61,695 bases of DNA. Origin: Escherichia coli (GTDB lineage Bacteria > Pseudomonadota > Gammaproteobacteria > Enterobacterales > Enterobacteriaceae). The first letter of the stretch is position 1, and the number at the start of each line of letters is the position of its first letter. Position numbers and translations under genes: made by a program. Location: NCBI RefSeq assembly GCF_003334385.1, contig NZ_QOWN01000027.1. One strand, written 5' to 3'. A model generated the notes under the pieces. That model did no database searches. It saw nothing but the letters and a program-made list of their open reading frames with translations, and was not told the origin of the DNA. This document shows positions 28,800 to 37,472 of this stretch, piece by piece.

Positions 28800-29090
28800 T
28801 CACGGCATCAAACCATTGAACAGACGTTTTTTACGCGGCCCGGTCATTAAAGATTCCAGTTTCGCGACACAGGTTTTGTAGTGGGGCGTGGTTTTATGGA
28901 ACGCCACTGCGTCTTCATCTTTATAGGCTTCGTAGATATAAAAGCGCGAATTCACTTCCGGGTCCTGTAAGACATCGAAGCGCAAATTGCCTTCTTCCTG
29001 TACAGAGCCCAGGTGGTTCTGGCGAAAAACTTCGATAAACTCGTCAACCTTGTCTTCATGAACGTTAATTTCAACCAGTGTGACGTGCAT
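28800..29090 (-). CDS. lsrG: Phospho-DPD isomerase LsrG (96 aa)
   Basis: 96-aa ABM-fold-like protein at the distal end of the lsrACDBFG operon. Confidence 0.85.
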
Positions 29091-29113
29091 AATTCTTCTC
29101 CTTAGATCCGCAG

Positions 29114-29989
29114 TTACTGTTTTTCACTCAGATAGAGTTCATATGCCCGATCAGCCGTTTCGTTATGGTGAACCACCGCCTGTACGGCTTTCATCATCGC
29201 CACCGGATGGTCAGACTGGAAAATATTACGCCCCATATCCACACCAGAAGCGCCCTGATCGATAGCCTGCCAGCACATTTCCAGCGCCTCGCGCTCCGGT
29301 AATTTTTTACCGCCAGCAATAACAATGGGTACCGGACATCCGGCAACAATCCGTTCAAAACCTTTTTCGACATAATAGGTTTTGATAATTTGCGCCCCCA
29401 TTTCAGCGGCGATTCGAGTCGCGAGCGAGAAATAACGCTGATCGCGCACCATATCTTTGCCCACGCCAGTCACGGCCATGGTCGGCATTCCCACTTTCAT
29501 TCCGGCATCAACCAGCTGAATAATATTTTTGATCGACTGATGTTCATATTCGCTGCCGATATAAACCTGCGCCGCCACCGCGCAACTGTTCAGGCGCACG
29601 GCGTCATCCATCGATAACGCCACGGCTTCATTACTTAATTCCGCCAGAATAGAGTTCGCACCTGACGCCCGCAGTACCACCGGCCTATTGGTCGCAGGGG
29701 GAACTACGCTGCGCAAAATGCCGCGCGTACACATTAATACATCGGCATGTTCAAACAGCGGGGCGATATTTATATCAATGCGTTCAAGTCCGGTAGTCGG
29801 TCCCTGAAAATAACCATGGTCAAAAGCCAGCATCACGGTTTTACCCGTTTTCGGATTAAATATCCGCGATAAGCGTGACTGCATTCCCCAATCCAGCGCA
29901 CCGCAACCTTTCAGGGTAAAAGGGATATTTTTTTGCGGTTGATCGGTACGAAAATCTTTACCATCTTTAATATCGTCTAAATCTGCCAT
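29114..29989 (-). CDS. lsrF: 3-hydroxy-5-phosphonooxypentane-2,4-dione thiolase LsrF (291 aa)
   Basis: Class I aldolase-like, 291 aa, in lsr operon order. Confidence 0.85.
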
Positions 29990-30015
29990 AACTTACTCCG
30001 GTTAAGTAATGCACA

Positions 30016-31038
30016 TCAGAAATCGTATTTGCCGATATTCTCTTTGTTGAATATCACGCGCTCCGGTAACAGTACGATGCCATTACCATCCGCTTCGTAG
30101 TCATAGCCCTGAACGCTGTTTGGCGAGACTTCAACCTGACCTACGCCCTTGATATCCAGCTTGTCGCCCGTTTTCATTGATCCTTTTTTCAATAATGCAT
30201 CCGCGACATACACTGAAATTTTGCCTTGCTGAACCACATCCCACAGGCCAAATTCTTTCACCGTGCCGCGCTCTACATACGGGCGCATCACATTTGGCGT
30301 ACTGAATCCGACAATCGCTACTTTGTCATTTTTCAAGTTTTCTGCGGCTTGTGCGGCAGCGGGCAGGGCGTTGGCATCGGGGGCGATAATGGCGTCGAGA
30401 TCGCTATACGCTTTTAATATTCCTTCTGCGGTTTGTAACGATTTAGTGGCATCGTTATAGCCAAACTGCGTAGTGACAATTTCCCAGCCTGGATGCTCTT
30501 TGGCGATTTTCGCTTTCGCTTCTTTCACCCACTGGTTTTGGTCCGTAACGGTGGGGCTTGAGTAGAAAAACGCGACTTTGGCTTTGTCTTTATTCACCTG
30601 ACGCGCCGCCATATCCACCAACATACCTCCTAACTGGGCGGGCGTTCCCTGATTAATGTAGTAAGAGCGGCACTCCGGTTTAGTATCAGAGTCCCAGGTC
30701 AGCACTCTCACACCACGTTGCATGGCGCGTTTCAGTGCCGGACACAAGCCATCAGGCGAAACCGCAGAAACGATAATGGCGTTATAACCTTGATTGACGA
30801 AGTTATTAATCAACTGTACCTGACCAGAAACACTGGGTTCTGTCGGCCCGTCGTAGGTCACATCAACGCCCAGCTCTTTACCCGCTTGTTGTGCGCCGTT
30901 GCCACCGCTGGTAAAAAATCCCACGCCAACCAGTTTGGGAATAAATGCAATACGCTCTGCGGCCTGCACATTCATAGAGATTGCGGCAATGCCAAGAGCG
31001 CTAAGTAAGGCGATTTTCTTAAAGCGATGAAGTGTCAT
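30016..31038 (-). CDS. lsrB: Autoinducer-2 periplasmic binding protein LsrB (340 aa)
   Basis: Signal peptide plus periplasmic sugar-binding fold; 340 aa. Confidence 0.85.
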
Positions 31039-31049
31039 GAAGATATCCT

Positions 31050-34599: not shown

Positions 34600-34763
34600 A
34601 TTTCCCCCGTTCAGTTTTGCAGGTGAGTTTTGAACAAATGTATTTCTGCTTTTAATTTGTTTATAACCTTAGGTGGACATTGCACATATTTCCGACGAAT
34701 AGATCACAATTTATGCTATTTTGATTTTCACGGTTGCGTTTGTTCATGCTCGTAGAGTCAAAC

Positions 34764-34779
34764 TGTGGTTGCCATCACA
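34764..34779. promoter_or_regulatory. Candidate CRP site TGTGGttgccaTCACA in the lsrA-lsrR divergent intergenic region
   Basis: Matches the TGTGA-N6-TCACA consensus with one mismatch. The lsr operon is reported to be CRP-dependent. Confidence 0.45.
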
Positions 34780-34847
34780 GATATAAATGAGCAAGAACTG
34801 AACAATTGCATTAAAGATTTAAATATGTTCAAAGTGAAGAATGAATT

Positions 34848-35801
34848 ATGACAATCAACGATTCGGCAATTTCAGAACAGGGAATGTGTGAAGAAGAACA
34901 GGTCGCGCGGATCGCGTGGTTTTACTATCACGACGGGCTGACCCAGAGCGAGATCAGCGATCGTCTCGGCCTGACACGTTTGAAAGTGTCGCGATTGCTG
35001 GAGAAAGGGCATCAGTCCGGCATTATTCGCGTACAGATTAATTCTCGCTTTGAAGGCTGTCTGGAATATGAAACTCAATTACGTCGTCAGTTTTCGCTGC
35101 AACATGTCCGGGTGATCCCTGGGCTTGCGGATGCTGATGTCGGTGGGCGACTGGGGATAGGCGCGGCGCATATGTTGATGAGTTTACTTCAACCACAACA
35201 GATGCTGGCGATTGGTTTTGGCGAGGCAACCATGAATACGCTGCAACGCTTAAGTGGTTTTATTTCGTCACAGCAAATTCGCCTGGTCACGCTCTCCGGT
35301 GGCGTCGGTTCTTATATGACGGGAATCGGGCAGCTTAACGCGGCGTGCAGTGTGAATATTATTCCGGCTCCGTTGCGGGCATCCTCCGCTGACATTGCCC
35401 GTACGCTAAAAAATGAAAATTGCGTCAAAGATGTTCTGTTAGCCGCGCAAGCAGCGGATGTGGCGATTGTCGGCATTGGTGCTGTGAGTCAACAGGACGA
35501 TGCGACAATCATTCGCTCCGGTTATATCAGCCAGGGCGAACAGTTAATGATTGGCCGAAAAGGGGCGGTTGGCGACATTTTAGGCTACTTTTTTGATGCA
35601 AAAGGTGACGTTGTCACGAATATCAAAATACATAACGAACTGATTGGCTTACCTTTAAGCGCGCTGAAGACCATACCCGTCCGGGTTGGCGTGGCAGGGG
35701 GAGAAAATAAAGCCGAAGCAATTGCCGCTGCAATGAAAGGCGGTTATATCAACGCACTGGTTACCGATCAGGACACAGCAGCGGCGATTTTACGTAGTTA
35801 A
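34848..35801 (+). CDS. lsrR: SorC/DeoR-type repressor LsrR (317 aa)
   Basis: N-terminal HTH and sugar-phosphate-binding domain; divergent from lsrA. Confidence 0.85.
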
Positions 35802-35879
35802 ATTTGCATGACCTTATTACCGGGAATGATGGAGAACGTATAGAGGAACAGACAGAACGCATAAGCCGAGGATAATCTA

Positions 35880-37472
35880 ATGGCTCGACTCTTTACCCTT
35901 TCAGAATCAAAGTACTACCTGATGGCGCTGGATGCAGGCACCGGAAGTATTCGGGCTGTGATATTCGACCTGGAAGGCAATCAAATAGCAGTGGGACAGG
36001 CGGAGTGGCGGCATCTGGCAGTACCGGACGTTCCTGGTTCTATGGAATTTGATCTCAACAAAAACTGGCAACTGGCGTGTGAGTGTATGCGCCAGGCGCT
36101 GCACAACGCCGGCATAGCCCCGGAGTATATCGCTGCCGTTTCGGCATGTTCGATGCGTGAAGGCATTGTTTTATATAATAATGAAGGAGCCCCGATCTGG
36201 GCCTGCGCCAATGTGGATGCCAGAGCGGCACGCGAAGTTAGCGAACTTAAAGAACTGCACAACAATACCTTTGAAAACGAAGTTTATCGCGCGACCGGAC
36301 AAACACTGGCTTTAAGTGCCATCCCCAGATTACTTTGGCTGGCGCACCATCGTTCCGATATTTACCGTCAGGCATCAACCATCACCATGATCAGCGACTG
36401 GCTGGCCTATATGCTCAGCGGCGAACTGGCGGTGGATCCCTCTAACGCTGGCACCACGGGACTTCTTGATCTAACCACCCGTGACTGGAAACCTGCATTG
36501 CTGGATATGGCTGGCCTACGTGCCGATATTCTTTCTCCTGTCAAAGAAACCGGCACATTGCTGGGCGTGGTAAGTTCACAAGCGGCGGAACTCTGCGGTC
36601 TGAAGGCGGGCACTCCGGTGGTCGTTGGAGGAGGCGACGTGCAGCTTGGTTGCCTTGGGTTAGGCGTTGTGCGTCCGGCACAAACCGCGGTTCTTGGCGG
36701 CACATTCTGGCAGCAAGTTGTAAATTTAGCCGCGCCGGTGACAGACCCAGAAATGAACGTGCGCGTTAATCCTCATGTTATTCCTGGCATGGTACAAGCT
36801 GAATCTATAAGCTTTTTTACCGGACTCACCATGCGCTGGTTCCGCGATGCTTTCTGTGCCGAAGAAAAACTGATTGCCGAACGTTTAGGCATCGACACCT
36901 ATACGCTGCTGGAAGAGATGGCCAGTCGGGTGCCGCCTGGGTCGTGGGGCGTAATGCCGATCTTCTCCGACAGAATGCGCTTTAAAACCTGGTATCACGC
37001 TGCGCCTTCCTTTATTAACTTGTCCATTGACCCGGATAAATGTAACAAAGCGACATTGTTCCGTGCGCTGGAAGAAAATGCGGCGATTGTATCAGCGTGT
37101 AACTTGCAGCAAATTGCTGATTTCTCGAATATTCATCCTTCATCGTTAGTCTTTGCAGGCGGAGGTTCAAAAGGGAAATTATGGAGTCAAATTCTCGCTG
37201 ATGTCTCGGGATTACCCGTCAATATTCCGGTGGTCAAAGAAGCCACTGCATTAGGATGTGCCATTGCAGCTGGCGTCGGTGCCGGAATTTTTTCATCAAT
37301 GGCAGAAACCGGAGAACGCCTGGTTCGCTGGGAACGGACGCACACACCAGACCCGGAAAAGCATGAACTTTATCAGGATTCACGCGATAAGTGGCAGGCA
37401 GTTTATCAGGATCAGCTGGGGCTGGTTGATCATGGACTGACGACGTCGTTATGGAAAGCGCCTGGGTTATAG
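35880..37472 (+). CDS. lsrK: Autoinducer-2 kinase LsrK (530 aa)
   Basis: FGGY carbohydrate kinase family, 530 aa. Confidence 0.85.

Follow-up and report, generated by a model that had tools for sequence, protein, structure and literature searches.

The window analysed here, a 61.7-kb stretch (61,695 nt) of Escherichia coli contig NZ_QOWN01000027.1, carries the lsr genes for the uptake and processing of autoinducer-2 (AI-2), arranged as lsrACDBFG on the minus strand and lsrRK on the plus strand (Table 1). In this system, LsrB binds AI-2 and LsrACD forms the importer. LsrK phosphorylates AI-2, and the resulting phospho-AI-2 frees two operators from the repressor LsrR before being degraded by LsrG and LsrF.

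An lsr locus closely matching that of K-12

All eight reading frames begin with ATG and lack internal stop codons. In a profile search against NCBIfam equivalog models, each of the eight Lsr proteins matched its own model from end to end, with a score far above the curated cutoff, and matching RefSeq genomes annotate the locus as lsrK/R/A/C/D/B/F/G. Gene order, orientation and lengths are those of E. coli K-12 MG1655 (lsrK b1511 to lsrG b1518), as are the junctions: lsrA and lsrC overlap by 7 nt (ATGCTGA, 33064-33070), the lsrC stop codon and the lsrD ATG have base 32042 in common (TAATG), and lsrA and lsrR are separated by 248 bp (34600-34847). Six of the eight genes have exactly the K-12 DNA sequence and encode the same proteins; LsrA matches K-12 at the protein level. 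Only four base differences separate the two loci: a synonymous change in lsrA, the LsrC substitutions V67M and G215S, and a C-to-T change at 34662. The neighbouring autotransporter gene yneO is intact here, whereas it is a pseudogene in K-12.

Judged by sequence, this is the canonical, well-studied E. coli Lsr system, and its identity is beyond doubt. The initial annotation had reported a complete lsrACDBFG and lsrRK locus, and the K-12 comparison and the equivalog matches bear this out; its coordinates for the genes, the 248-bp spacer and the motif discussed below are exact, and both gene junctions are as it described them. Its statement that all the genes are intact holds for the reading frames, which have K-12 lengths; LsrC carries two substitutions at otherwise invariant residues, and AI-2 transport by the encoded importer is a prediction.

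Downstream of lsrG, the transcription unit has been given as 'lsrACDBFG-tam' (PMC8085971), and a search of the lsrG-tam interval for a terminator-like site on the minus strand found none. The gene tam is probably the last of the lsrACDBFG transcript.

Table 1 Genes and control elements of the lsr locus (positions in the window; a point marks elements given without strand)
Feature	Position	Strand	Evidence and remarks
tam, trans-aconitate methyltransferase	27985..28743	-	Identical to K-12
lsrG, phospho-AI-2 (P-DPD) isomerase, 96 aa	28800..29090	-	Identical to K-12; NCBIfam NF007791 equivalog, 191.8 bits (cutoff 135)
lsrF, 3-hydroxy-5-phosphonooxypentane-2,4-dione thiolase, 291 aa	29114..29989	-	Identical to K-12; NF006081, 559.9 bits (cutoff 297)
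lsrB, periplasmic AI-2 binding protein, 340 aa	30016..31038	-	Identical to K-12; NF011937, 700.1 bits (cutoff 384)
lsrD, ABC permease, 330 aa	31050..32042	-	NF011612, 597.3 bits (cutoff 500)
lsrC, ABC permease, 342 aa, V67M and G215S	32042..33070	-	NF011961, 664 bits (cutoff 388)
lsrA, ABC ATPase, 511 aa	33064..34599	-	One synonymous change relative to K-12; NF011967, 958.3 bits (cutoff 586)
lsrA-side LsrR operator ('p-lsrA-box', box A), TGAACA-N21-TGTTTA	34631..34663	.	Half-sites invariant in 16/16 other aligned spacers
Candidate lsrA -10 hexamer, TAAGGT (inferred)	34666..34671	-	T1, A2 and T6 invariant in 17/17
lsrA-proximal CRP site, probably 'CRPI', TGTGATCTATTCGTCG on the lsrA strand	34693..34708	.	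One good half-site
Central TGTTCA element, LsrR-type half-site	34741..34746	.	G, T, C and A invariant in 17/17
Flagged CRP site, probably 'CRPII', TGTGGTTGCCATCACA (TGTGG-TTGCCA-TCACA)	34764..34779	.	Consensus match and conservation
lsrR-side LsrR operator ('p-lsrR-box', box R), TGAACAATTGCATTAAAGATTTAAATATGTTCA	34799..34831	.	Half-sites invariant in the alignment
lsrR, phospho-AI-2-responsive repressor, 317 aa	34848..35801	+	Identical to K-12; NF011947, 618.6 bits (cutoff 486)
lsrK, AI-2 kinase, 530 aa	35880..37472	+	Identical to K-12; NF008187, 1000.9 bits (cutoff 528)

A conserved CRP site between lsrA and lsrR

Within the divergent spacer, the initial annotation had flagged TGTGGTTGCCATCACA as a candidate CRP site. 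The motif matches TGTGA-N6-TCACA at nine of ten core positions and AAATGTGATCTAGATCACATTT at 14 of 22 (counted by hand). CRP sites were scored by counting mismatches to the core consensus against shuffled sequence, and by conservation. At a tolerance of one mismatch or fewer, the core occurs six times in the window, some of them inside genes, compared with 2.16 +/- 1.43 in shuffled sequence, and the chance expectation of such a match in any given 248 bp is about 0.009.

We then turned to phylogenetic footprinting in an alignment of 17 lsrA-lsrR spacers from nine genera, a set from which Salmonella, Klebsiella and Yersinia are absent. The half-site columns of the motif are conserved in 15-17 of the 17 sequences, against 75 invariant columns among the 248 of the spacer. 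In its 6-bp centre the most common base is shared by at most 12 of the 17 in every column, and by only 5-8 in five of the six. Constrained half-sites around a freely varying centre are the signature expected of a working CRP site, which is why we read the motif as one. It lies at the same position in seven genera (Escherichia, Citrobacter, Izhakiella, Superficieibacter, Mangrovibacter, Edwardsiella and UBA5654); the Buttiauxella spacers lack it, and the Kluyvera version is weaker and degraded. Conservation of the CRP sites of this spacer across Enterobacteriaceae has also been described in a 2026 preprint that surveyed about 20,000 genomes (bioRxiv 10.64898/2026.06.09.730415). Its letters and their conservation mark the flagged motif as a true binding site for cAMP-CRP, deeply conserved and already present in the literature.

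Two CRP sites and two LsrR operators

The account of the control region given by the initial annotation was correct in the CRP site that it named and incomplete in missing a second CRP site, next to lsrA, and two LsrR operators. The operators follow the pattern TGAACA-N21-TGTTCA: box R is perfect, and box A, a perfect TGAACAAAT...ATTTGTTCA repeat in K-12, has one lineage-specific change (TGTTTA). The central TGTTCA element was considered as a third full operator and rejected, as a TGAACA partner is absent at the N21 distance. In the lsrA-proximal CRP site, GATCAC (34702-34707) is invariant in all 17 spacers and the other half is unconserved.

These four elements occur in the same order as in the published map (Xue 2009 and Wang 2005, as summarized in Hauk 2016, PMC5137460), which assigns two CRP and two LsrR boxes to the spacer, under the control of both proteins, in the order p-lsrR-box, CRPII, CRPI, p-lsrA-box. 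As far as that summary goes, its p-lsrR-box (-237 to -197 from the lsrA ATG), AACAAT, AAGATTTAA, TAATGCA and TGTGCAAT map exactly onto the window, and its p-lsrA-box is present with one changed base. Box R holds AACAAT and AAGATTTAA, and TAATGCA falls at -214 to -208 from the lsrA ATG, precisely as published (PMC5137460). The lsrA-proximal site adjoins TGTGCAAT (34679-34686), which Hauk 2016 places 'very close to CRPI' (PMC5137460), and it is probably CRPI. The flagged site is most probably CRPII, on the basis of one landmark sequence and of how a figure legend orders the boxes; the published order thus puts CRPII at the flagged motif and not elsewhere in the spacer. The literature searched yielded neither literal site sequences nor CRP coordinates or start sites.

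The same architecture recurs in other Enterobacteriaceae (Citrobacter, Kluyvera, Superficieibacter, Mangrovibacter, Edwardsiella and others), in which divergent lsrA and lsrR genes flank a spacer of 248-251 bp with both LsrR operators, the GATCAC half-site and mostly TGTGG-N6-TCACA, with LsrR identities of 63-97%; the Buttiauxella spacer is different.

Spacing defines two modules

The elements are also constrained in their spacing. From box A to GATCAC the distance is 71 bp in 17/17 spacers, and from the start of the flagged site to the start of box R it is 35 bp in 17/17. The distance from the flagged site to the lsrA-side elements varies between 60 and 62 bp, and all of the length variation falls between the two CRP sites. 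The control region consists of two rigid modules, each pairing one LsrR operator with one CRP site at a fixed distance: on the lsrA side, box A with the half-conserved CRP site, and on the lsrR side, the near-consensus flagged site with box R.

Because its spacing to box R is invariant, the flagged site probably serves the lsrR promoter first. Measured from its centre, the lsrR ATG is 76.5 bp away and the lsrA ATG 172.5 bp. Given hypothetical start-site positions, it would fit -41.5 (with AACAAT, 34801-34806, as the -10 element) or -61.5, and from one of these it may mainly activate the lsrRK promoter; a class I or class II assignment would be a guess. The lsrA-proximal site, in turn, would activate lsrACDBFG. 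With TAAGGT as the candidate lsrA -10 element, CRPI would be centred at -41.5; TACATT (34642-34637) is an alternative candidate. A scan of the 248-bp spacer for sigma-70 consensus found no promoter-like sites, a result that is uninformative for activator-dependent promoters. The abstract of a 2005 study by Wang reportedly mentions, in the singular, 'a' CRP site at the lsr promoter, which suggests that the lsrA-proximal site may be the biochemically dominant one.

The two operators lie 166-168 bp apart, or about 16 helical turns, which would fit an LsrR bridge between them with the intervening DNA bent by CRP. Mutations in the distal p-lsrR-box raise expression in the lsrA direction (PMC5137460), an effect that likewise fits cooperation between the operators.

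Other readings of the flagged site

A credible but doubtful alternative gives the flagged site its main role at the lsrACDBFG promoter, as an upstream tandem CRP site that works synergistically with the proximal one, and not at lsrR. The framing of the initial annotation leans this way, the literature concentrates on CRP-dependent expression in the lsrA direction, and the distance to the lsrA ATG is conserved too (172.5-175.5 bp across relatives). Against this, it is the 35 bp to the lsrR-side operator that is invariant, as opposed to the 60-62 bp to the lsrA-side module, and the 71 bp between the two CRP sites, about 6.8 turns, would put them off-phase. A preprint also has cAMP-CRP activating both lsr and lsrR (bioRxiv 10.64898/2026.06.09.730415). 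The two roles could coexist.

It is improbable that a factor other than CRP recognizes the TGTGG...TCACA element or shares it, as in a CytR-CRP repression complex. The G that replaces the consensus A in TGTGG is conserved in 17/17 sequences and suggests a constraint beyond CRP affinity, and a role for CytR in the spacer was proposed by Hauk et al. (PMC5137460); the proposed CytR octamer, however, adjoins CRPI, away from the flagged site. The up-mutation that motivated the proposal, TGTGCAAT to TGTACAAT, creates TACAAT, a near-consensus -10 element, which would be a simpler explanation. That the motif resembles the CRP consensus by accident and regulates nothing is very improbable: the bare pattern is unspecific, as its intragenic occurrences indicate, but the rarity expected in a 248-bp spacer and the conserved half-sites around an unconstrained centre argue against coincidence.

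We therefore keep to the reading of a canonical E. coli Lsr system with a two-module control region, with the flagged motif as a real cAMP-CRP site, most probably CRPII, and put its probability at about 85%.

Lineage-specific changes

Three of the differences from K-12 fall at conserved positions. The C-to-T change at 34662 alters the distal half of box A, which reads TGTTCA in all 16 other aligned spacers. In LsrC, V67M (base 32872) and G215S (base 32428) replace residues that are invariant in 24/24 homologues and in the 22/22 homologues covering the position, respectively, from more than ten genera. A search of 5,426 complete E. coli genomes found none of the three changes; for the LsrC changes, the top match reached 99.6% of 501 nt. 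Relative to one candidate lsrA start site, position 34662 lies at about -3.

The exact LsrC variant protein is found on eight contigs in a public gene index. Sequencing errors, planted changes and chemical mutagenesis were considered as origins of the lsr changes and rejected. Across 19651-38254 there are eight lineage-specific differences (three synonymous, three missense and two intergenic), seven of them G:C to A:T. Mutagenesis is not needed to account for them, because recent natural mutations are AT-biased in any case and ordinary lineage-specific mutation is enough. In this lineage, represented by draft assembly GCA_003334385.1 and some seven further contigs, the Lsr system may be altered in function, a tentative suggestion with the odds against it.

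Discussion

Joint control by cAMP-CRP and a sugar-phosphate-responsive repressor is familiar from lac and deo, which combine a CRP activator with a repressor acting at two separated operators. The lsr region resembles these systems in its working principle. It differs in that its inducer is a phosphorylated quorum-sensing signal and LsrR is a SorC/DeoR-type protein, and DNA looping in lsr is conjectural. CRP, LsrR and lsr have been described as an incoherent feed-forward loop (PMC6121374).

The finding holds, but it is an ordinary one, in that the locus and its CRP site are already known. As the lsr locus, the LsrR operators and CRP dependence have been under study since 2005, it matters little in itself. 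What the analysis adds is confirmation that the flagged motif is real, together with a modular picture in which each CRP site keeps a fixed position relative to the operator and promoter on its side. It also documents operator and permease changes specific to one lineage, a natural variant in which operator and transporter function could be put to the test. Were the Lsr system of this lineage indeed altered, the operon could have a weakened operator and be partly derepressed, the importer could be crippled, or both could apply, and the lineage would offer a natural case in which a K-12-like E. coli has begun to lose or retune its AI-2 uptake.

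The lsr locus

The window spans all of contig QOWN01000027.1 in draft assembly GCA_003334385.1. Direct reading and the ORF list reproduced every coordinate of the initial annotation, which had described a complete lsrACDBFG–lsrRK locus, including the 7-nt lsrA/lsrC overlap (ATGCTGA), base 32042 common to lsrC and lsrD (TAATG) and the 248-bp divergent spacer between lsrA and lsrR (34600–34847). The gene identities are likewise borne out: the 8.9-kb region is ~100% identical to annotated lsrK/R/A/C/D/B/F/G loci of E. coli chromosomes, and all eight Lsr proteins match their own NCBIfam equivalog model full-length and well over the curated cutoff. 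K-12 MG1655 has the same gene lengths, junctions and spacer length, and differs at four bases: one synonymous in lsrA, two missense in lsrC and one in the spacer. On the minus strand, no terminator-like site was found in the lsrG–tam interval, with which the transcription unit named ‘lsrACDBFG-tam’ (PMC8085971) is consistent.

The whole locus was found in 4,174 of the 5,426 complete E. coli genomes, a share that agrees with the 75% given for Enterobacteriaceae (bioRxiv 10.64898/2026.06.09.730415); ~23% are without it. Deletion alleles occur in MB06101 and O111:H8 8E, in which a truncated spacer abuts an autotransporter gene or lsrK. The spacer is also found on three plasmid records.

Genes, operators and LsrC substitutions of the lsr locus
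Feature	Position	Strand	Basis or description
lsrG	28800–29090	minus	ORF list and direct reading
lsrF	29114–29989	minus	ORF list and direct reading
lsrB	30016–31038	minus	ORF list and direct reading
lsrD	31050–32042	minus	ORF list and direct reading
lsrC	32042–33070	minus	ORF list and direct reading
lsrA	33064–34599	minus	ORF list and direct reading
lsrR	34848–35801	plus	ORF list and direct reading
lsrK	35880–37472	plus	ORF list and direct reading
LsrR operator box A (lsrA side)	34631–34663		TGAACA-N21-TGTTCA form, half-sites invariant
LsrR operator box R (lsrR side)	34799–34831		TGAACA-N21-TGTTCA form, half-sites invariant
LsrC V67M	32872		V67 invariant in 24/24 homologues
LsrC G215S	32428		G215 invariant in 22/22 covering homologues

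A conserved CRP site in the spacer

The spacer contains TGTGGTTGCCATCACA at 34764–34779, which had been put forward as a candidate CRP site. It fits TGTGA-N6-TCACA at nine of ten core positions and is the sole CRP-core match in the spacer at up to two mismatches. Across the window, the core occurs six times with at most one mismatch, against 2.16 ± 1.43 in shuffled sequences, a rate that gives ~0.009 chance matches per given 248 bp. Further one-mismatch matches lie in the uxaB–yneE and ydeO–ydeN intergenic regions (27015–27030, 50602–50617 and 50816–50831).

For the spacer comparison, lsrR loci were taken from a single genome of each species, and lsrA and lsrR were located in each locus. TGTGG-N6-TCACA recurs at the same position in Escherichia, Citrobacter, Izhakiella, Superficieibacter, Mangrovibacter, Edwardsiella and one Enterobacteriaceae MAG, its centre 75.5–78.5 bp from the lsrR ATG. 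In an alignment of 17 spacers, the window included, the ten half-site columns are kept in 15–17 sequences, with TCACA and the non-consensus G of TGTGG retained in all 17. The top base in the six N6 columns reaches at most 12/17 (5–8/17 in five of the six), and 75 of the 248 alignment columns are invariant overall. Constrained half-sites flanking a free N6 are the pattern expected of a working CRP site. Buttiauxella is without the site and the Kluyvera version is weaker, in agreement with the reported lineage variation of 0–3 CRP sites (bioRxiv 10.64898/2026.06.09.730415). Together, these results confirm the observation and support its interpretation, although the initial annotation had overlooked a second CRP site.

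Hauk et al. 2016 (PMC5137460) give the box order as p-lsrR-box, CRPII, CRPI, p-lsrA-box. Because of this order, the flagged site is most probably the published CRPII, and on this reading the published map does not place CRP elsewhere. CRPI is probably TGTGATCTATTCGTCG (34708 to 34693 on the lsrA strand), of which one half, GATCAC, is invariant in 17/17 aligned spacers and the other is variable. Counted from the lsrA ATG, the same study places the p-lsrR-box at −237 to −197 (34796–34836 in the window) and TAATGCA at −214 to −208 (34807–34813); it also describes TGTGCAAT (34679–34686) as ‘very close to CRPI’. The published up-mutation of TGTGCAAT to TGTACAAT was ascribed to a CytR site. The change yields TACAAT, a near-consensus −10 hexamer, whose creation may be a simpler account of the stronger promoter.

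Lineage-specific changes

Relative to K-12, a C-to-T change at 34662 converts the distal half of box A from TGTTCA to TGTTTA; the other 16 aligned spacers all have C here. The window 66-mer around it has no exact match among the 4,098 complete E. coli genomes having the region, and the K-12 version is exact in 3,860 of 4,099. When a 44-mer has this base first, all best matches begin at base 2. Both LsrC substitutions alter residues invariant among homologues of 63–96% identity from more than ten genera, and both are absent from complete E. coli genomes (best match, 99.6% of 501 nt). Eight contigs of the public gene index share the exact LsrC variant, so these changes are real lineage markers rather than errors.

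Eight lineage-specific single-base differences from K-12, D9 and SCU-104 fall between 19651 and 38254. Seven are G:C-to-A:T changes; by effect, three are synonymous, three are missense and two are intergenic. The flanking regions showed no such difference in those aligned parts for which a second genome allowed a cross-check. The eight look like recent, largely unselected mutation, and we consider it unlikely that the operator and permease changes measurably affect AI-2 uptake or regulation.

Elsewhere in the window, yneK carries a ~0.83-kb deletion (~20084–20093) compared with D9, SCU-104 and every best-matching genome, with a short GTATAG microhomology at the junction. The yneO/ECSE_1600-family autotransporter (38003–43423) is an intact 1806-aa ORF, whereas yneO is a pseudogene in K-12 (extra G at window position 41963), D9 (frameshift) and SCU-104 (internal stop). 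At ~45432–45484, ~2.7 kb of the D9 ydeT/ydeS/ydeR fimbrial cluster is absent, and SCU-104 has a similar gap. Rfam matches at 13974–14186 and 2383–2581 correspond to STnc560, an Hfq-binding sRNA beside mgtS/mgtT, and IS009. The sRNA/mgtT region also contains a T-run length polymorphism at ~14097.

Spacer architecture

A consensus promoter scan of the spacer found nothing. A candidate lsrA −10, TAAGGT (34671–34666; TAnnnT in 17/17), would set CRPI at −41.5, and an alternative, TACATT (34642–34637), would set it at ~−70.5. The operators lie 166–168 bp apart, ~16 turns, and distal p-lsrR-box mutations raise expression in the lsrA direction (PMC5137460); both are consistent with a repressor that would bridge the two operators.

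The alignment shows two rigid modules: box A start to GATCAC is 71 bp and CRPII start to box R start is 35 bp, each in 17/17, and length variation (60–62 bp) is confined to the stretch between the two CRP sites. TGTTCA (34741–34746) and TG(A) (34722–34724) within that stretch are invariant in 17/17 spacers from nine genera. From the module spacing, each CRP site would belong to its own promoter–operator side. This is a textbook lsr system, and the flagged motif is an already known, conserved CRP site. With one CRP site per side, the flagged one would serve lsrRK first, which fits the reported activation of both lsr and lsrR by cAMP–CRP (bioRxiv 10.64898/2026.06.09.730415).
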